From: an uncultured Armatimonadetes bacterium
GTDB lineage: Bacteria; Armatimonadota; Hebobacteria; Hebobacterales; Hebobacteraceae
Length of the DNA stretch: 64,000 nt
Assembly: GCA_963716175.1 (NCBI GenBank)
Contig: OY970296.1
Span: forward strand, 2,592,001-2,656,000
Direction of reading: 5' to 3'
How positions within the stretch are numbered: position 1 is the first letter of the stretch; every line of letters begins with the position of its first letter. The position numbers and the translations under genes were made by a program. The notes under the pieces were generated by a model. The model did no database searches, was not told the origin of the DNA, and was given only the letters and a program-made list of their open reading frames with translations. Shown piece by piece: positions 4,929-57,242 of this stretch.

Positions 4929-5708
<780 letters not shown>

Positions 5709-5711
5709 CGG

Positions 5712-6830
5712 CTATCCCTCCTGCCCCATGGGACAGGTGACCGCGGCCTCGAACATGGCCACGATGTTCTCGGGCGGAGTTCCGCTCTGAATGGCGTGAG
5801 AGGGGCCGAGGATGTACCCCGCGCCTCGGCCCAGGATGCGGATGTAGTCCCGGACCTCTTCCCGAACATCGGCGACGCTGCCGAAGGGAAGTGTGGTCTG
5901 GACGCTGATCCCTCCCTCGAAGCAAAGGCGGTCGCCGTACTTCGCCTTCATCGCCACTGGATCCATTCCGTCCGCGCTGAACTGGAGCGCTTGCAGCACA
6001 TCCACTCCCATATCAATCAGCCCCGCGACGGCGTCCATCACGCCGCCGTCGGAGTGGTAGATGACTCCCGTGTCGAACTCGTGAATGGCCCGGTTCAGGC
6101 GGACGTGATGAGGCTTGATATGCTGCTCCCACATTTGCCGCGACATCAGCAGCCCGCGCTGGCCCACGATGTCATTGGCGGTGAACGCGAGTTCGATGCT
6201 GCGCCCGGCGGCCGCCAGGGTGCGGCGTGTGAACTCGATGTAGAAGTCGGTCACCCGGGCCATGATCTCGTGGAAAAGCTCGGGCCGCTCGATCATGTCT
6301 ATCAGAGTCTGCTCGTATCCCCGCATCCACCAGGTGCGCTCGAACGGGTTTCCGCTGTCCACCATGAGCGCGTAGTCTCGGCGCGCCGTGGCCTCGGCGA
6401 TGAGGTTGGGAAGCGCGGAGTAGTCCCACCAGTCCGGGTCAGGGAAACGATGGCGCCGGAGGTCCGCGATGTCGGTGGCCTCAGCTAGCGGGTAGCGGCA
6501 GATCTCATCATAGGCGGCTGCTCCATACCAGCAGGGCTTGCGCCACACGCCCCAGATATCTTCGTGTTCACCGCCGGCCGTTCGGCCCAGCCGCGGCCCG
6601 CGGTACTCGCGCCCCGCCCCCCGGTAGCTGCCGTTCACCGCGATCGCGTCCAGGAACCGTTCGAGGTACCGCGCTATCCCCTTCTCCTCGTCCACGCCCA
6701 GATGGCGCGCCAGAGCGGCCGGCGTCGTGCCCTCGAAGCCAGAGCAGATCAGGCTGATGGGCACGCGATCGGTCTCCTGGTGGTCCAGCGCCAATCGGAC
6801 TCGTTCGCGGGGGGAGAGTGATTCGTGCAT
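5712..6830 (-). CDS. Uroporphyrinogen decarboxylase / MtaA-CmuA methyltransferase-like family protein
   Basis: PRERV...DRVP N-terminus, YHSDG, GGISVQ, GYILGPSH..TPPEN. Confidence 0.85.
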   Translation of the reverse strand: MHESLSPRERVRLALDHQETDRVPISLICSGFEGTTPAALARHLGVDEEKGIARYLERFLDAIAVNGSYRGAGREYRGPRLGRTAGGEHEDIWGVWRKPCWYGAAAYDEICRYPLAEATDIADLRRHRFPDPDWWDYSALPNLIAEATARRDYALMVDSGNPFERTWWMRGYEQTLIDMIERPELFHEIMARVTDFYIEFTRRTLAAAGRSIELAFTANDIVGQRGLLMSRQMWEQHIKPHHVRLNRAIHEFDTGVIYHSDGGVMDAVAGLIDMGVDVLQALQFSADGMDPVAMKAKYGDRLCFEGGISVQTTLPFGSVADVREEVRDYIRILGRGAGYILGPSHAIQSGTPPENIVAMFEAAVTCPMGQEG

Positions 6831-6964
6831 AGTGTCCCCTGGCAAGTGCCTGCTGCCATCTTCTATCTGGCTGAGCCCTGCTCCTGGTGAGAGGCCGCGC
6901 GGTGCCGAGAGGTGGCCAGGCCGGGCGCGGGGAACCCTTCGCTCAAACCCACAGGAGGGAAGCC

Positions 6965-7762
6965 ATGAAGTGGACCCTTAACACCTACGAGGTTGGCCAG
7001 GAGTGGAGTCTCGAACACCTGATCGAGATGTGCCAGAAGACGGGATATCCCTACATCGAGTTCCTGATGGACTTCCAGCAGCCGCACGGCCTGGAGTGGG
7101 ATACGCCGCGGGAGCGCTTCGCCGAGGTGAAGGGCAAGCTGGACGCGGCCGGGCTCAAGTTCGGGTCGCTCACTAGCTGTCAGACCTTCCACGCGGCCGA
7201 CGCCAAGGAGCGGACGGAGTCAGTGAAGCGGGTGAAGCGCGTGATAGACATGGCTCGCGAATTCGGGTGCGACCATGTGCGCGTCCTCGGCGACCAGCTC
7301 CCGAAAGAGGAGAAGGAGCGGCCGGCCGTGGTCAAGCAGGTGGCCGACTGCATTCGCCAGCTCGGCGAGTACGCGGGCAAGGGCATTGCGGTCTCGATGG
7401 AGATGCACGGCAGCTTCACCGATCCCCATTACTCCATGGAGGTCGTCAAGCAGGTGAACCTGCCGAATGTGGGCCTGGTCTTCAACGGGCAGTTCCCGAT
7501 AGGCAGACCCTGGAAGTACCTGCTGCCGGAGGGCGCGACCTCCATCAAGCCGTTTTACGACATGATCCGGCCCCACCTCACTTCCATTCACCATCACTCC
7601 ATGGAGCGGCCCACCGAGCTGTGCTATTGGCAGGAGTTCTTCCGCCTGGCGAAGCAGGACGGCTACGCCGGCTATGTGGCGAACGAGGCCGCTTACAAGG
7701 GGCCCGATCCGGAGAAGGTGCTGCGGCTTTACACGGCCCTGTTCCAGACCATGATCGCGTGA
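6965..7762 (+). CDS. Sugar phosphate isomerase/epimerase (AP_endonuc_2 TIM barrel)
   Basis: RBS AGGAGG, EMHG motif, pattern typical of the xylose-isomerase-like fold. Confidence 0.75.
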   Translation: MKWTLNTYEVGQEWSLEHLIEMCQKTGYPYIEFLMDFQQPHGLEWDTPRERFAEVKGKLDAAGLKFGSLTSCQTFHAADAKERTESVKRVKRVIDMAREFGCDHVRVLGDQLPKEEKERPAVVKQVADCIRQLGEYAGKGIAVSMEMHGSFTDPHYSMEVVKQVNLPNVGLVFNGQFPIGRPWKYLLPEGATSIKPFYDMIRPHLTSIHHHSMERPTELCYWQEFFRLAKQDGYAGYVANEAAYKGPDPEKVLRLYTALFQTMIA

Positions 7763-7772
7763 GAGCGCTGCT

Positions 7773-8339
7773 ATGTCCGAGGGGAACGAATCGCCCGCGG
7801 GCAGCTTGCTCACCATAGGCAATGCTCTCACCGGCGCGCGGCTCATTCTGCTGCCGCTGGTGATCGTCGGCATCGCCACCCATCGCGGTCATCTTGCCGT
7901 GGTGGCGATGGCGGCGATCGTGGTCACTGATCTGCTGGATGGTCGCATCGCGCGGCGGCTGGGGCAGGCCAGTGAGTTCGGGAAGACCCTGGACAGCACG
8001 ATTGACTTCGTCCTGATCTACTCGCTGTTCATCGCCTTCTATGCCGCGGGGCGACTGGCAACGTTCCAGTTCGCCATTCTCTATCTGGCGATGCTGACCA
8101 TCTTGCTGCTCCAGTTGGTGGTGGCCGGTACCGGCCGGGGAGCGGCTCTCGGCCGCACCGCTCTCGGGAAGCTGACGGGCGCGCTCGAGTATGGGTACCT
8201 GCTGTTCCTGGTGGCGATGGAGGTGCTGCCAGGACGCCCGGTGCTGACCGCAGCCGGCATCGCCTTCTTCGTAGTCTTGGCGCTGGCCATTGTGCTCAAC
8301 AGCATCGAGTGTCTGGTGAAGCTGCGCCGCCTGACCTGA
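7773..8339 (+). CDS. CDP-alcohol phosphatidyltransferase family protein
   Basis: TDLLDGRIARRLGQASEFGKTLDSTID signature. Confidence 0.9.
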   Translation: MSEGNESPAGSLLTIGNALTGARLILLPLVIVGIATHRGHLAVVAMAAIVVTDLLDGRIARRLGQASEFGKTLDSTIDFVLIYSLFIAFYAAGRLATFQFAILYLAMLTILLLQLVVAGTGRGAALGRTALGKLTGALEYGYLLFLVAMEVLPGRPVLTAAGIAFFVVLALAIVLNSIECLVKLRRLT

Positions 8340-8380
8340 CCGTGCCCGGCAGGCAGGGAGGCAGCGCGTGATGCACGATA

Positions 8381-8923
8381 GTGCTTGACTGGGACGAAAC
8401 CGCCTTGCGCTGGATCAACGCGCACCACTACCCGCTGCTCGACGCGGTGCTGATCCCGGTCTCCTATCTGGGAGAGGCCGGCGCTATCTGGTTCGCCGTC
8501 TGCCTCGCGCTGCTGGTGTTCGGCAGGCGGGAGCAGAAGCTGACCGGCCTCACGCTGTTGCTGGCGATGGTGCTCCTGGACAGGCTCGTCGCCGGTCCTC
8601 TGGGGCAGGTCTTCCACCGCGAGCGGCCCTACCTGGCGCTCAGCGGCATCAGGCAGGTGGGCATCCGTTGGGGCGGGGGTTCCTTCCCGTCGGGTCACGC
8701 GCACAGCGTCTGGCTGGCCACCATCATCCTCAGCCATCGCTGGCGCAGGCTCACGCTGCCGCTGACCGCCTTCGCTCTTCTCACCTGTTACTCGCGCCCC
8801 TATCTTGGCATGCACTATCCACTGGACGTGATGGTGGGCGCGGCGCTCGGAATCGCCGCGGGGCTGGGCGTGGTCGGGCTGGAGAGGATCTGGCGCCGGC
8901 GGGCCGAGGTGCAGCCGCAATGA
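8381..8923 (+). CDS. PAP2 family phosphatase
   Basis: RERP, SFPSGH, SRPYLGMHYPLDV. Confidence 0.92.
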   Translation: MLDWDETALRWINAHHYPLLDAVLIPVSYLGEAGAIWFAVCLALLVFGRREQKLTGLTLLLAMVLLDRLVAGPLGQVFHRERPYLALSGIRQVGIRWGGGSFPSGHAHSVWLATIILSHRWRRLTLPLTAFALLTCYSRPYLGMHYPLDVMVGAALGIAAGLGVVGLERIWRRRAEVQPQ

Positions 8924-22954: not shown

Positions 22955-22982
22955 AGTGGCAGGAGCCAAGCTCCTGCCCAAC
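22955..22982 (+). repeat. REP-like hairpin; empty-site form of the 24-nt insertion target
   Basis: agtggcaggagccaagctcctgcccaac; matches the flanks at 43481-43532 without the insert. Confidence 0.75.
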
Positions 22983-35986: not shown

Positions 35987-37483
35987 ATGGTCGGACGGCG
36001 GTCTGTGCTGCTGCTGGTGATGGCTGACGCCTGCTGGATAGGGTCCACGCTGCTCGCGGCCTGGGCGCTGGACGGCTGGCGCCGCTCGCTACCCATGTGG
36101 CAGATGAACCCGGCTCATCTCACTCACCTGACCGGGGCGGTGGCGATCTGGCTGCTTGCGCTCTACATCTGCGGCGCCTATGAGCGCAAGTACCTGACGC
36201 TGAAGGGCCGAAACCTGAGCCTCACCCTATGCGGCAGCGCGGTGGGGACCGCCGCCACCGCGGGCAGCCTGTATCTGCTCCCTCAGTGGCACATGAGCCG
36301 GTTCGCTTTTCTCCTGCTGGGGATGGGAGCGGTGTCGGGTCTGGTTGCCATCCGCGCTATCTGGCTCGTTCACCAGCGGCGCATTCCCCTCCCCGCCTTT
36401 CTCGGGGTGGGCGACCCGGAGGTGCTGGGGGATATCTGGCTCGAGCTAACGCGTGTCACCGCGGTTCAGGGGCAGCTTCCAGTGGTCTCGCCAAACGGCC
36501 ACAGCCCCTCGGCTGCGCTCGGGGCAGGCCCGGCCCGCACGCATCCAGGTGTCTCCCTCTGTTCCGAAGAGGCCGCCCTCGCCGCGCTCGCGGCGCACCG
36601 CGGCGGGATGGTCGTGCTCAGCGATGGCACCATCCCCTCCTCGCAGGCCGCCTCCATCCTCAACCGAGCCAGCCTCTCCGGCAGCACCGTGGCAGACATT
36701 TCCACCTTCTATGAGATCTACACCGGCCGCGCGCCCATCTTCCGCACCGCCGGCGGCTGGCTCTTCCGCGCTCAGCACCATGCGCCGGACACCCTGGCCT
36801 ACTACAGCAAGCGGCTCTTCGACGTGACCGTGACTCTGCTCTTGCTGCCAGTCGCGGTCCCGGTGCTGGCGCTGGCCGCGCTGGCAATCAAGCTCACATC
36901 TCCAGGACCTGTGTTCTACCGACAGCGCCGGATCGGGAGCCGAGGGCGTGAGTTCTCCCTGGTCAAGCTGCGCTCCATGTCCGTGGACGCGGAGAGGAAC
37001 ACCGGGCCGGTGTGGGCGGGGGAGGAGGATAGCCGCATCACCCCGGTGGGCCGGGTGCTGCGCGCCACCGGCATTGATGAGCTGGCTCAGCTTTGGAATG
37101 TGCTGCGAGGTGAGATCAGCCTGGTGGGCCCCCGCCCGGAGCGACCGGAGGTGGTGCGCGGCATAGTGCAAGAGGTGGCCCCCTACCTTCAGCGCCACGT
37201 GGTGCCGGCCGGGATCACGGGGTGGGCGCAGGTTCATCGGGGGGGAGACAGCAGCCTGGAGGATGTGGTGGACAAGGTCCGGCTCGATCTCTACTACGCC
37301 CGCAACTTCTCGCTCTGGTTCGACATCGTGATCCTGCTGCGCACATTCCAGATGCTGCTGGCGCATGCCAAGCCAGCCCCTACCGCCACGGTTGGGCAGG
37401 AGCGGGCGCTCCTGCCACGGTCGGGCGCTTCCCCGCTCCCGGCCTCAGTCGGCCTTGGTTCGGGAGGCAGGTCCGATGGCTGA
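35987..37483 (+). CDS. Polyprenyl glycosylphosphotransferase (WcaJ/WbaP-like sugar transferase)
   Basis: N-terminal TM helices; KRLFD, KLRSM, RIT.VG..LR..GIDEL.QL.NVL.G..SLVGPRPE, GITGWAQV. Confidence 0.93.
   Translation: MVGRRSVLLLVMADACWIGSTLLAAWALDGWRRSLPMWQMNPAHLTHLTGAVAIWLLALYICGAYERKYLTLKGRNLSLTLCGSAVGTAATAGSLYLLPQWHMSRFAFLLLGMGAVSGLVAIRAIWLVHQRRIPLPAFLGVGDPEVLGDIWLELTRVTAVQGQLPVVSPNGHSPSAALGAGPARTHPGVSLCSEEAALAALAAHRGGMVVLSDGTIPSSQAASILNRASLSGSTVADISTFYEIYTGRAPIFRTAGGWLFRAQHHAPDTLAYYSKRLFDVTVTLLLLPVAVPVLALAALAIKLTSPGPVFYRQRRIGSRGREFSLVKLRSMSVDAERNTGPVWAGEEDSRITPVGRVLRATGIDELAQLWNVLRGEISLVGPRPERPEVVRGIVQEVAPYLQRHVVPAGITGWAQVHRGGDSSLEDVVDKVRLDLYYARNFSLWFDIVILLRTFQMLLAHAKPAPTATVGQERALLPRSGASPLPASVGLGSGGRSDG
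36507..36530 (+). repeat. 24-nt micro-insertion, in frame inside the sugar transferase
   Basis: cctcggctgcgctcggggcaggcc after CC; adds 8 codons (PSAALGAG). Confidence 0.75.
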
Positions 37484-53752: not shown

Positions 53753-53920
53753 CTACTCGCTCAGCGCTTTGGCAACCTCGCGGCAGCAGGCCGGCAGGCT
53801 GCCCCCTGAGACGTGAGCGCGGATGCACTCACAGCAGGTGCCGCGCCGCGGGCAGTCCTCGCTGGTGCAAGGGCAACCTTCCAGATTCATCTTGAGGTTG
53901 GGGCAGGGTTGCTCAGGCAT
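53753..53920 (-). CDS. Small Cys-rich protein (DUF6485-like)
   Basis: CPCTSEDCPRRGTCCECIRAH...LPAC; RBS AAGGAGG. Confidence 0.75.
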   Translation of the reverse strand: MPEQPCPNLKMNLEGCPCTSEDCPRRGTCCECIRAHVSGGSLPACCREVAKALSE

Positions 53921-55025
53921 GAGATCCTCCTTTGTGATGTACCTCTTGAACCTGATAGCGCGCCAGGCGCCGCAGCGCCTGCAGCTTCTCCCGGTCGGCC
54001 AGCTTCGCTCGATCCACCGCCTCCCGCAGCAGCTCGATGGAGTGGTCGTAGGTCTGGCGATCCACCGGGTACGGGACGCCATCCTTGCCCCCGTGGGCGA
54101 AGCTGAAGGTGGCCGGGTCGCGCACGCTGGCCTTCGCGCCATAGACCAGGTCGGCGATGAGCGCCAGCGCGCGAATCGTCTTCGGCCCCACTCCGGGCCG
54201 CGCCAGCAGGGCCTCGAAGTCCGCGGGAGGGTGCTCGTAGCTTTTCGCCAGGATGCGTTCGAAGGACTCCGGCCGGATGTCCGCGGCGATGATGTCGTGC
54301 CGCCCGGGAAGCGACAGCTCTTGCGCCCGGCGCAGCTCTCGCGCCAGCCTGTCGGGGGGCTCGGCCGCGACCAGCGCGCTCGCCTTGCGCGCCTCTTCGC
54401 TCTCGTGGGCCACCAGGTTCAGCACCAGTTGCGCCTTGCGCTCCGCCACGATGGCGGCGTGGGGTTCATCCACGAAGTCCTTCACCCCGGTGGAGAGCCA
54501 GTGGTAGCGCCGCGCCCAGCCAGTGGTGTCGTTCATCCCCTGCTGCACCACCGCCCATTCTCCGGCCGGGGTGAACAGAAAGCAGTGGTGATAGAGCTGG
54601 TATCCATCCTGCACCGCGGTGTTGTCCACTTTGGCCGAGATCTTGCTGGCATAGACCAGCTCGTCGGCAGGCCGAGCAACCGCATGCTGCTCGGCGTGGG
54701 CCACGATCTCGGCCGGCGTCTTCCGGGAGGCCGCGCCCTTGCCTCCGGCGACGAAAAGGCCGAAGTCCGGCTCTCTCCCTCTCACCGCCTCCTTGAGCGC
54801 GCCCGTGGTCGTGGTGGTGAGGCCGGAGCTGTGCCAATCGAAACCCAGCACACAGCCCAGGGCCTGGAACCAGTGGGGATCGGCGACGCGCACCAGCACC
54901 TCCCCGGGCCCGAACTCCTCCACTAGCACCCGCAGAATCTCCCGCGACAGCAGCACCATGCGGGAGAACAGCCAGCGCGGCGCGCGGCCGCCGTGGAGCG
55001 GGAGGTTGGCGGTGCCGGTTCTCAT
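53913..55025 (-). CDS. DUF763 domain protein
   Basis: LPLHGG.AP.WL, GFDWHSSG.TT, KVDN.AVQDGY.LYHH, FAHGGKDG.P. Confidence 0.9.
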   Translation of the reverse strand: MRTGTANLPLHGGRAPRWLFSRMVLLSREILRVLVEEFGPGEVLVRVADPHWFQALGCVLGFDWHSSGLTTTTTGALKEAVRGREPDFGLFVAGGKGAASRKTPAEIVAHAEQHAVARPADELVYASKISAKVDNTAVQDGYQLYHHCFLFTPAGEWAVVQQGMNDTTGWARRYHWLSTGVKDFVDEPHAAIVAERKAQLVLNLVAHESEEARKASALVAAEPPDRLARELRRAQELSLPGRHDIIAADIRPESFERILAKSYEHPPADFEALLARPGVGPKTIRALALIADLVYGAKASVRDPATFSFAHGGKDGVPYPVDRQTYDHSIELLREAVDRAKLADREKLQALRRLARYQVQEVHHKGGSHA

Positions 55026-55072
55026 TGGGGAGATGATACCTGGTGAAGGCAGCCGGAGCAAGCCGCGATGTG

Positions 55073-55101
55073 GTGGGGCAGGAGCTTCGCTCCTGCCCTG
55101 C
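55073..55101 (+). repeat. REP-like hairpin
   Basis: gtggggcaggagc-ttc-gctcctgccctgc. Confidence 0.7.
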
Positions 55102-55111
55102 CGGGCTCCCT

Positions 55112-55875
55112 TCAGCGCCCCCGACGGAGCCCCTTGGCTATCTCCTCGGAGCAGGAGAAGCCTTTCGCCGTCAGTTTGTAGCCCGCTGCTTGATCGCCGT
55201 GCACGAGCTTCCACGCGACAGCCTTCTTCAGGGTACCCGTAACCGTCGACGCACTTCTCCGCATGTCCTTGCCCAACTGGTTCCGTGACGCCCGTTCCGG
55301 GTAGTAGTGTCTGAGAAGAAGCAGGAGTTCGTCCATCGGCGTGACCTCGGCCAAGACAAGCCGGTCGCTGCCGAAGTCTTCGACCACCTGGCTGATCGGC
55401 ACCTGTACGAACTCGGCCATCTTGCCGGCCGTCGTCACATCCGACTGCATACAATGCCGGATAATCTCCGCCAAGATCCACTGTGCTCCGTGGTACAGGA
55501 GCCTCAAGTCATAGATGTTGGGGTCGACAGCGCCCTTGTGAAGTATGTTGCGCCTGCTCCGGAGAGCATACATACCACGGGCGACGCGGGCACCCGTGAC
55601 CCTCAGGTCGTCAGCGAGCGCCTGGGTCCCCCCGGTGCCCCTCTCACACTCGTTCAGGAAACCCTCGACCTTGATGTGGCCGGCTGCATCGGGGGTACGT
55701 CGCGGAGATGCTGCAACGCCTGAACGAAACTCTCAACGAACTTGCCGGGCGAAGATCGGCCCAGTGTCGCCGTGATGACATCCTGTCGAATCTGAAGGAA
55801 CTCCGACACGACATCGGTGGCCAGGTCGCGACCGATGCAAGGTTCCAGTGCGGCGATCAGCTCATCTGGCTGCAT
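55112..55875 (-). CDS. HEPN-like (Rx4H) + C-terminal winged-helix protein; frameshift near the G5 run 55691-55695
   Basis: Adding one base joins ...LQHL to ...KVEGFLNEC...ARGMYALRSRRNILHKGAVDPN; C-terminus STVTGTLKK...YKLTAKG. Confidence 0.6.
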
Positions 55876-55917
55876 GGGTCACCCCATTGTTCGCAGTAAG
55901 GCAGCGCTGTCGTCCTT

Positions 55918-56457
55918 TCAAGCGTGGTGTTCGATGAGCTCCTTGGCTCGCTTCTTCCAGTCTCCGCTCAACTGCAGGCATTTCTTCCCCTTCACCGTGG
56001 TCACCCTCAGCAACGACTCTTGGCTAACCTCGCGGTCGACGTTGCCCGTGACACCCAGCTGCGTGAGCGCCTTGCGGACGCCCGGGAGCGGGTAGTTGAT
56101 GATCTGTTCGAGTACGCGTGCGGACCAGACGAGCAACACTGCGGCGTTCCTGGTACGTTCGGCCTCGGTGTGGCCTAGTGCGCCGCTGATGAGGTGCACG
56201 CCGCTCTCATCAGACGCGAACAGCTGCATTACGTGTTCCTTACTGACCCCGGCGGCCTCAGCCAGACGCTTGGCCCACTCGCCAGCGGGTACACCCGCTC
56301 CCTCCTTACCCTCCGCGCCCCCGCCCACGCGTTTGCTGTGGTCCACTCGCGACTGAAGCAGATACTCGAACGCTCGGGCCTGAACCGCCTCCGGGAGTTC
56401 CTTGACGGCTTCCCCGAGTGCTTTCATCAGCTCAACTGCGTTCTCATCGATCTCCAT
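55918..56457 (-). CDS. Hypothetical protein with N-terminal helical hairpin and possible wHTH
   Basis: Clear RBS, 179 aa, same-strand operon context, N-terminal EAVKELPEAVQARAFEYLL. Confidence 0.7.
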   Translation of the reverse strand: MEIDENAVELMKALGEAVKELPEAVQARAFEYLLQSRVDHSKRVGGGAEGKEGAGVPAGEWAKRLAEAAGVSKEHVMQLFASDESGVHLISGALGHTEAERTRNAAVLLVWSARVLEQIINYPLPGVRKALTQLGVTGNVDREVSQESLLRVTTVKGKKCLQLSGDWKKRAKELIEHHA

Positions 56458-56531
56458 ACCTGCTCCCCCCCTTACGGATTGGCAATCTGCCAGCTTACAC
56501 CTCTCATGGCTCAGAGCCAAGGAGCCGAGGC

Positions 56532-57011
56532 TCACTCAGCCTTTGGCAACTGCTCCTCGACGTATTTCTTGCCTTTGTTCGACAGGGCGAACTTACCCCT
56601 AGCGACCGATCGCATGTAGCCATCTCGCTTCGCGTCCCTCAAGACCTGAGCCGGCTCGTTGATCCGTTTCATCTTTCCGCGGGCCACCTCAGAGAAGGCC
56701 GAGTCCAGGTCATCCTTCGTGGTGGCTGCCAATCCCGCGTGCTCCTCGCGATGATACGCGATCACCAGCGCGGTTTCCCAATCGTTGGCTGGTTTCCTCT
56801 CGCCCATAAACGCGTCTAGGTCTGCACTGGGATGCTGCTTGGGGCCGCGCTTACGCTCAGCCTCAGCATCTTGGCCGTCGCCTTTGCCTTCCCTGGGCTG
56901 AGTCAGCAGATACTGTAGTACGGCGCCACAACAGGCCGCGCGCAGCTCCTCGGGTACATCTTTGACCGCCTCGACAGCAGCGCGAACGGCAGCCTTGATC
57001 CGGTGTTCCAT
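56532..57011 (-). CDS. Hypothetical winged-helix protein
   Basis: 159 aa; LVIAY..., VLRDAKRDGYM...GKFALSNKGKKYV wing pattern. Confidence 0.72.
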   Translation of the reverse strand: MEHRIKAAVRAAVEAVKDVPEELRAACCGAVLQYLLTQPREGKGDGQDAEAERKRGPKQHPSADLDAFMGERKPANDWETALVIAYHREEHAGLAATTKDDLDSAFSEVARGKMKRINEPAQVLRDAKRDGYMRSVARGKFALSNKGKKYVEEQLPKAE

Positions 57012-57051
57012 GGAACCCCTCGCTTCCTGACCACCCCACACCCTTCGATAT

Positions 57052-57060
57052 ATACTAGCA
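57052..57060 (-). promoter_or_regulatory. Extended -10 promoter candidate for the three-gene cassette
   Basis: TGCTAGTAT on the minus strand ~40 nt upstream of ATG 57011. Confidence 0.4.
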
Positions 57061-57242
57061 CGGATGGACCCCGGGAGAAAGCCCTCAGCGCTGAGTCCGA
57101 AGCCATGCTTAAGTGCCCAGCAATGGCTTCTCCGGTAGCGTACTGTCGAATCTCGTCCTCGACCGCGGCCTGCACGCCTCCGCCCTGCGAGTGCTGATGC
57201 GAATCTGGAGCGCTATCCCCCGACCGAGGCCGGCCCGCATTC

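Follow-up and report, generated by a model that had tools for sequence, protein, structure and literature searches.

The window analysed here, a stretch of 64,000 nucleotides from an uncultured Armatimonadetes bacterium, contains on its minus strand (55112-57011) a cassette of three open reading frames (ORFs) in the same orientation, G1, G2 and G3. An earlier note had placed them there, between a Gfo oxidoreductase and a DUF763 gene, as a candidate new defence or toxin-antitoxin (TA) system, and the ORFs and the Pfam assignments of the flanking genes bear out this arrangement. We found that G3 belongs to a widespread effector family with a helical N-terminal fold and invariant Arg and His residues, that the genes of this family lie in conserved synteny with, and tightly coupled to, those of a single partner family to which G1 is related, and that the cassette is of foreign composition. 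On balance, we favour the view that the locus is a horizontally acquired module of TA or abortive-infection type, for which we infer RNase activity, toxicity, neutralisation and a trigger.

The G3 family and its partner gene

G3 is encoded in two frames of the minus strand. Its N-terminal piece (frame A, 55690-55875) comprises 61 codons up to a frame break and carries helices 1-2 of a HEPN-like domain with G44 and E48; the whole frame A ORF (55654-55875, 73 aa) runs past the break to a stop at 55654. The C-terminal piece (frame B, 55112-55690, 192 aa plus stop), which lies in an open stretch of 206 codons from stop to stop (55112-55732), holds the remaining HEPN-like domain and a C-terminal winged-helix-like domain. 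If a single X bridges the break, the gene encodes 61+1+192 = 254 aa, as the earlier note had estimated after repair of one frameshift, and the intact homologues are single ORFs of 245-254 aa. Protein searches with the C-terminal piece yielded 20 homologues of 198-254 aa (E 2e-49 to 2e-27), and a genome scan disclosed 42 effector loci in at least ten phyla, with representatives in Dehalococcoidia, Planctomycetota, Bdellovibrionales, Deltaproteobacteria, Lentisphaerae, Acidobacteria, Alpha-, Beta- and Gammaproteobacteria, Actinobacteria, Bipolaricaulota, Bacteroidetes and a Peribacteria metagenome-assembled genome (MAG). The N-terminal piece corresponds in alignments to roughly the first 60 residues of the intact homologues and was matched by tblastn at 40 of these 42 loci (E 1e-9 to 1e-16). 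A profile of the N-domain run against 1.84 billion representatives (clustered at 50% identity) retrieved 792 of them at E<=1e-3, 515 at <=1e-10 and 61 at <=1e-30. Since most of the 792 are about 250-265 aa long, the two-domain architecture is the rule. One apparent relative, the 2259-aa protein P0070, was discarded as a repetitive artefact, because the profile matched it in 26 short stretches and its only Pfam matches were coiled-coil and repeat families.

To find partners, every ORF lying up to 4 kb from one of the 42 effector genes was included in a clustering. There was one conserved neighbour, a co-oriented gene of about 170-200 aa directly upstream of the effector gene in 36 of the 42 loci (truncated in two of these, L029 and L040). 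At 20 loci the end of the partner gene and the beginning of the effector gene share 8 nt, at four loci 4 nt, and the spacing lies between -14 and +5 nt in all 35 loci measured. Two adjacent small genes travelling together, as in type II-like TA modules, are what most of the 42 loci display. Intact pairs are carried, among others, by the cultured isolates Paraburkholderia translucens (L027), Sphingomonas fuzhouensis (L035), Ensifer sp. (L037) and Lutimaribacter pacificus (L038). The partner protein begins with a conserved helix, continues through a variable, acidic linker of low complexity and ends in a conserved part of about 95 aa, in which 16 of 34 members gave PadR matches below threshold. 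PDB sequence searches with the partner profile returned only low-complexity matches (eIF3h, flagellin), which we disregarded, and those with G1 and with G2 returned nothing. The complex prediction for effector plus partner scored 0.00, below the mark, a value that counts neither for nor against binding.

G1 (56532-57011, minus strand, 159 aa) has one homologue in protein searches, P0023, with 46% identity, and a tblastn match only in locus L007. When G1 and P0023 were compared by hhalign with the alignment of 34 partner proteins, the match reached 95.3% (E 2.1e-8), and it rose to 96.3% (E 1.6e-9) on addition of two more relatives. Because of these profile comparisons we regard G1 as a partner homologue: judged by sequence profiles, it is a divergent member of the family, with the N-terminal helix, the low-complexity linker and a C-terminal winged-helix-like domain. 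The winged helix-turn-helix (wHTH) that had been proposed for G1 comes to it solely through this relation, and so through the same sub-threshold PadR matches.

G2 (55918-56457, minus strand, 179 aa) starts at an ATG preceded by a GGGGGAG Shine-Dalgarno-like box, and its GC content at the three codon positions (0.69/0.42/0.77) is coding-like. Nothing was found to back the wHTH-like fold once suggested for it. Its hhalign match to the partner family extended only over residues 6-35 (E about 1e-3, probability 19-22%), and its feature matches in the ESM Atlas were to unnamed clusters (scores 0.91-0.92). We considered G2 as a second partner paralogue and dropped the idea as a visual impression, given that only its N-terminal helix scored, weakly, and its C-terminal half gave nothing. 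Of the two partners envisaged in the earlier note, G1 is thus related to the conserved one and G2 is without homologue; likewise, the co-occurrence elsewhere that it called for holds for partner and effector, but no G2 homologue was detected at any of the 42 loci. By sequence comparison, the conserved unit is one of two genes, and the window carries a three-gene variant with G2 between G1 and G3.

The two domains of G3

The N-domain was examined in two sets. Across 36 of 36 loci, residues G44, E48, R92, Y98, R101, K103, R104, N105, H108, D118, W128 and E132 are invariant. In a census of 92 diverse full-length representatives, down to E 4e-20, R101, R104, H108, D118 and W128 were found in 92 and E48 and E132 in 91, so that the conservation of Arg and His on which the earlier note had made its proposal depend held in both sets. 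In 90 of the 92, R101 is followed by N or S, and the family consensus reads Y-x-[LIV]-R-[NS]-[KR]-R-x-x-x-H, that is R-x6-H counted from R101 to H108. In the window the putative catalytic motif is R-S-R-R-N-I-L-H (55538-55561, minus strand). The RRNILH that had been singled out as an Rx4H motif is indeed present at 55538-55555, but its first R (position 103) is K in 72 of the 92 representatives.

In HEPN proteins a polar residue follows the Arg of the Rx4-6H motif, helix 2 carries a conserved acidic residue, and the stretch from helix 2 to helix 3 often contains an insert (Anantharaman et al. 2013, PMC3710099, in the portion drawn on here). The effector family carries a conserved motif of this type with the polar residue in place, and the Ex3[K/R] form of HEPN proteins is found by half: of the 92 representatives, 46 have R at position 52 and 40 have Q. 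In the AlphaFold2 (AF2) model of the N-domain (pLDDT 90.5, pTM 0.87), which is all-helical with seven helices, R101 lies in the last turn of helix 84-103 and R104-H108 in loop 104-113. E48 belongs to helix 42-59, which a short additional helix (68-77) separates from the motif helix. As modelled, and with helices 1-4 mapped by us, the domain would fit each point of HEPN placement given in that portion of PMC3710099. In the ESM Atlas, the model of residues 1-155 of the homologue P0002 resembled Abi_C (TM-score 0.60), HEPN PF05168 (0.59) and DUF4145 (0.57), with three unnamed clusters ranking above them. Foldseek against the PDB placed the HEPN structures 1wol, 2hsb, 6tug, 3o10 and 4nqf among the N-domain matches listed to rank 50, with TM-scores of 0.39-0.59 (best 0.53/0.59) and none at E<=1e-3. 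A search of BFVD with the N-domain model gave no match at E<=1e-3 and no informative names.

Several of these results speak against a HEPN assignment. The R-x6-H spacing is at the edge of the range of the HEPN motif; neither the N-domain nor the full-length model had a PDB match by Foldseek at E<=1e-3; FAT domains, cytochrome c' and designed proteins scored as high as the HEPN structures; and HEPN-clan Pfam models matched none of 20 members at E<=5 and none of 64 representatives at E<=0.01. We nevertheless hold membership of the N-domain in the HEPN group to be probable, while statistically the fold is not established. Of the HEPN RNase that the earlier note had seen in G3, the helical N-domain with invariant Arg and His therefore stands, and significant fold matches or a HEPN Pfam model are missing.

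The C-terminal domain (55115-55345, minus strand, about 77 aa) has the order helix-helix-helix-strand-strand-helix in the full-length AF2 model (pLDDT 82). Foldseek matched it weakly to MarR/MepR and AspA (TM-score by target 0.44-0.78, E 0.3-0.6), and G3 matched SloR/ScaR at E 0.05-0.1. Below their thresholds, Pfam models for Rio2_N matched 9 of 20 members, and MarR_2, HTH_27, HTH_24 and HVO_A0261_N matched relatives, the best at 4.8e-6 and still under the cut-off. The C-terminal winged helix proposed for G3 is only weakly confirmed by such sub-threshold matches; as judged from model and sequence, the domain is likely to be a winged helix of no named family.

Composition and genomic neighbourhoods

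Within the 64 kb, GC is lowest in the cassette. Its GC content is 0.614, the mean of 1.9-kb windows being 0.666 (standard deviation 0.016); only 0.3% of such windows are equally low, and the lowest ones all overlap the cassette. GC at third codon positions (GC3) is 0.69 in G1, 0.77 in G2, and 0.69 and 0.78 in the N- and C-terminal pieces of G3, as against 0.84-0.89 in the flanking genes and a mean of 0.824 (standard deviation 0.036, minimum 0.739) in 41 coding-like long ORFs. The lower GC and the more frequent A/T-ending codons that had been noticed by eye are thus real, and the cassette is compositionally foreign and, on our reading, recently imported by horizontal transfer.

At the homologous loci, 149 neighbouring ORFs, at most two per side, were scanned (158 picked automatically, minus 15 dropped, plus six added by hand). 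The neighbours differ at almost every one of the 42 loci and are mostly housekeeping genes; such variable neighbourhoods are as expected for a self-contained mobile pair. There is an integrase at L020 and an IS4/5 transposase at L029. Clear defence-type genes stand within two genes of the effector at six of the 42 loci: a CAP12-type TIR protein (PDC-S35) at L007, type III restriction at L011, a DpnI-like protein at L021, SIR2 (PDC-S65) at L024, AbiEi/AbiEii at L040 and AbiL at L042. Two further neighbours are ambiguous, an IetA-like AAA fragment at L015 and a kinase at L031. Neighbours labelled 'mad2', 'mad3', 'PD-T4-6' and 'IetA' by PADLOC were not accepted as clear defence genes, since in Pfam they are generic methyltransferases, ABC ATPases, a kinase-HDOD protein and an AAA fragment. 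A defence-island setting, for which the earlier note had proposed a check, did not emerge, either from these six clear and two ambiguous loci or from the sugar-metabolism flanks of the window.

Locus L007 is a particular case. There, a tight co-oriented trio (5371-7285) made up of a G1-like gene, a 307-aa TIR protein and a 121-aa wHTH-like gene lies 0.7 kb upstream of the G3 homologue. The TIR protein is of CAP12/Pycsar type (Pfam 4.5e-22; PADLOC PDC-S35), and the G1-like gene, directly before it, matched G1 plus P0023 with 93% in hhalign. This single case suggests that the partner class is used with interchangeable effectors. On the same locus and on L008, a 196-aa gene divergent from the effector (7353-7943, minus strand) has a partner-like layout, with an N-terminal module, an acidic linker and a wHTH-like end. 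This gene and the genes of 121-133 aa at L001, L007 and L003 were tried as alternative partners and set aside, their hhalign comparisons being insignificant.

The interrupted reading frame of G3

Frame A of G3 runs ...LQHLRDVP through a run of five C (55691-55695, minus strand), and frame B resumes with DAAGHIKVEGFLNE... from 55690; the run is one base short, a -1/+2 change with respect to intact homologues. In the alignment with homologues the break sits in a poorly conserved loop, and the family-invariant residues are all kept in both pieces of the window copy. One uninterrupted ORF encodes the effector at 39 of 41 scorable homologous loci (L039, in which the contig end cuts the gene, was excluded), and none has the break of the window copy. 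The remaining effector homologues, in L040 (7962-8581) and L041 (8001-8746), both MAG assemblies, are each split into two ORFs. G3 is either freshly inactivated or mis-assembled.

We believe there is a substantial chance, though one short of even, that the break is a sequencing or assembly error in the C5 homopolymer and that the organism has an intact, functional three-gene variant. The place of the break, the intactness of all conserved residues, the similar splits in L040 and L041 and the length of the contig (4.56 Mb), suggestive of a long-read assembly, all point that way; the DUF763 gene and both Gfo genes, on the other hand, are full length against their Pfam models, so that the nearby assembly is not riddled with frameshifts. 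A decaying remnant, with a genuine frameshift that makes G3 a pseudogene and with G1 and G2 as orphaned leftovers that have no current function here, is only slightly less likely than such an error. Inactivation of toxin genes is common, which agrees with it, as do the frame break itself, the unrelated gene that separates G1 from G3 where the canonical operon overlaps, and the source protein set, which holds only a 153-aa C-terminal ORF (P0001) starting just before the motif. Against decay, there is a single break only, neither piece has lost any of the family-invariant residues, G1 and G2 are whole and have GC values at the three codon positions like those of coding sequence, homopolymers are a typical place for long-read assembly errors, and the other split copies both come from MAG assemblies. 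Synthesis of G3 by programmed -1 ribosomal frameshifting at the C run is very improbable, because, even though some 40 nt around the run are common to both frames, A-CCC-CCG is no X-XXY-YYZ slippery heptamer, the region is a poorly conserved loop, and the gene is uninterrupted at 39 of 41 scorable loci with the break common to none.

A putative TA or abortive-infection-like module

In the mechanism that we propose, the effector would consist of an N-terminal HEPN-type four-helix bundle fused to a C-terminal winged helix, and R101-[N/S]-[K/R]-R104-x3-H108 together with E48, D118 and E132 would make up a metal-independent RNase site. Like HEPN enzymes, it would act as a dimer. The partner may both repress the operon, by autoregulation, and keep the RNase inactive, and infection or loss of the partner would then free the RNase, with RNA cleavage and growth arrest as the outcome. 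In the window, G1 would stand for the partner, G2 for a lineage-specific extra gene with a partner-like N-terminal helix, and G3 for the effector, interrupted in this copy.

A number of observations do not favour such a module. The window copy of G3 is broken, so its activity cannot be assumed. G1 is not adjacent to G3 but separated from it by G2, unlike in the canonical operon, and G2 has no homologue besides itself in protein searches and no tblastn match in the 42 loci. A strictly essential antitoxin is difficult to reconcile with L003, L007 and L008, which lack the canonical upstream partner, or with L029, where an insertion sequence cuts the partner and leaves the effector gene intact. 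No defence-type neighbour was found at 34 of the 42 loci, the cassette is surrounded in the window by sugar-metabolism and housekeeping genes, Pfam disclosed no defence or mobility genes in the wider flanks, and tblastn of the C-terminal piece against plasmid and phage collections gave no match. As for the L029 element itself (6486-8696), it is an IS4/5-family transposase (DUF4096 plus DDE_Tnp_1) between the truncated partner (94 aa) and the effector homologue.

An alternative is that G3 and its partners are ordinary winged-helix regulators with a helical sensor or dimerisation domain, with neither nuclease activity nor a role in toxicity or defence. The only matches at the sequence level are indeed to wHTH regulators (MarR, PadR, DtxR-type, Rio2_N), the HEPN match is never significant and the neighbours in the window are housekeeping genes. 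We nonetheless consider it improbable, as the absolute conservation of R101, R104, H108, D118 and W128 and the near-invariance of E48 and E132 across 92 members are typical of a catalytic site and not of a sensor pocket, the structural neighbours are HEPN families, and a selfish or defence module would account for the patchy distribution over phyla, the variable neighbourhoods and the foreign GC.

The TA or abortive-infection-like module resembles several known systems. Abi_C (PF14355, AbiJ), DUF4145 (PF13643) and HEPN PF05168, the nearest named structural clusters to the effector in the Atlas (TM-scores 0.57-0.60), resemble it in the all-helical bundle, in the acidic position of helix 2 and in having an insert ahead of helix 3, as described in PMC3710099, where the six-residue spacing of the effector's R-[N/S]-K-R-x3-H is also within range. 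They differ in that none of their Pfam models matches the effector, and in the parts of the architecture tables of PMC3710099 covered here EC042_2821 and MTES_1575 are the sole entries with a wHTH fusion, and no C-terminal wHTH fusion with an upstream wHTH partner appears. HepT/MntA (type VII) is likewise a two-gene system, in which a HEPN RNase toxin with an Rx4-6H motif is neutralised by the adjacent product (PMC7641770 and PMC4621449, from the passages used), but there is no nucleotidyltransferase domain in G1, G2 or the 34 partner proteins, and the effector has a wHTH of its own. Because the partner is without this domain, neutralisation by AMPylation is not expected.

The closest mechanistic analogy for a wHTH partner that could gate a HEPN RNase is the type IX retron (Retron-Kva2), in which, according to the sections consulted of bioRxiv 10.64898/2026.07.14.738597, a HEPN nuclease is silenced by a winged-helix protein wrapped around its active site until, during infection, a phage nuclease releases it. 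According to the same sections, its HEPN protein is without the canonical motif and its winged-helix protein has two alpha-beta domains that bind HEPN. The PADLOC retron models show no sequence similarity to G1, G2 or G3; we found no reverse transcriptase domain in the window flanks and no Rfam non-coding RNA in 54000-59000, and across the 42 loci the only Pfam name resembling a reverse transcriptase was RVT_3, together with RNase H on the same 144-aa protein beside L013. AbiEi/AbiEii (type IV TA, abortive infection) likewise pairs a wHTH-containing antitoxin or autoregulator, encoded upstream, with a toxin encoded downstream, the two genes being closely coupled as a bicistron, and its genes adjoin the G3 homologue in L040; the AbiE toxin is, however, a nucleotidyltransferase and not a HEPN protein, and G1, G2 and G3 match no AbiE model. 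RnlA/RnlB and LsoA/LsoB have a domain architecture different from that of the cassette, their antitoxin is, to our knowledge, no wHTH protein, and they have no sequence match to the cassette proteins. They too join a HEPN RNase toxin to a dedicated protein antitoxin in anti-phage abortive infection (PMC8266594, in the portion used).

The earlier note had not been able to match the cassette to a named system, and neither PADLOC, Pfam, NCBIfam, PHROGs nor the literature supplied one. No Pfam, NCBIfam, PADLOC or PHROGs model was reached by G1, G2 or G3. In PADLOC-DB v2.0.0, G1, G2 and the N-terminal piece of G3 had 0 families, and the C-terminal piece only CARF3--CARF_TM (E 0.017) over the wHTH region, which is not a component match; in Pfam, 20 close and 64 distant members of the effector family matched no model. 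In the literature we found no description of the family or its architecture, within a coverage that does not extend to the PMC3710099 supplement on minor HEPN families, which could contain it. HEPN toxin modules are well known; what matched no library searched is, at the level of sequence, this family with its HEPN-type plus wHTH architecture.

HEPN RNases are recurrent effectors in TA, abortive-infection and CRISPR-associated immunity. If our reading is true, the cassette represents a new architecture of effector plus regulator, with HEPN fused to a winged helix and gated by a winged-helix partner, and suggests a partner module common to HEPN-type and TIR effectors; it would also help to annotate 'hypothetical' pairs in environmental genomes and to discover defence systems. 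A more ambitious version, in which the partners are a modular class of sensors or antitoxins that pair with interchangeable effectors in an unrecognised, widespread family of anti-phage abortive-infection systems, matching winged helices of partner and effector read a nucleic-acid cue and G2 is a second, specificity-changing partner, seems doubtful to us. For this genome the message is modest, a foreign and probably selfish cassette with an interrupted effector gene.

Surroundings of the cassette in the window

The upstream flank is a Gfo/Idh/MocA oxidoreductase gene (57919-59004, Pfam 1.9e-26) and the downstream flank the DUF763 gene (53913-55025, Pfam 1.4e-131). Further out there are glycosyltransferases, a PfkB kinase, a second Gfo gene, a xylose-isomerase-like TIM barrel, a response regulator and a ROK protein. 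Within the cassette, 74 nt separate G1 from G2 and 42 nt separate G2 from G3. The extended -10 that the earlier note had ascribed to the cassette can be made out by eye as a possible, weak TG-n-TAGTAT in an AT-rich box at 57052-57060 (minus strand), 41-49 nt upstream of the G1 ATG, but a two-hexamer promoter scan of the minus strand reported no site.

A perfect 10-bp GC-rich hairpin, terminator-like or similar to a repetitive extragenic palindromic (REP) element, occupies 55076-55099, 13 nt beyond the G3 stop. Its palindrome, GGGCAGGAGC-N3/4-GCTCCTGCCC, occurs at three sites (55076-55099, 22957-22979 and 37394-37417), with degenerate copies at 57243-57268 and 57469-57523, and is probably a host terminator or REP-type hairpin. 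We had considered the hairpins at 55076-55099 and 57243-57268 as cassette boundaries; because the palindrome recurs at 22957-22979 and 37394-37417, the one at 55076-55099 was taken for a host-type element and the boundaries were rejected.

Between the Gfo gene and G1, a gap of 907 nt is packed with local repeats at 57313-57750, namely a 38-nt unit present six times and a 145-nt unit present twice at 92% identity, and includes a perfect 15-bp palindrome (57338-57368). Rfam had no match in the repeats, nor over 54000-59000 as a whole, and the repeats contain five of the eight pattern matches of the window. Just downstream of the DUF763 gene there is a short Cys-rich ORF (53753-53917, minus strand), about 54 aa from an internal Met of a 129-aa ORF (53753-54142), with no Pfam match at 1e-5. 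A tRNA-Arg gene (anticodon GCG; 60323-60399, minus strand) lies 3.3 kb off the cassette; not being adjacent, it is no obvious integration site.

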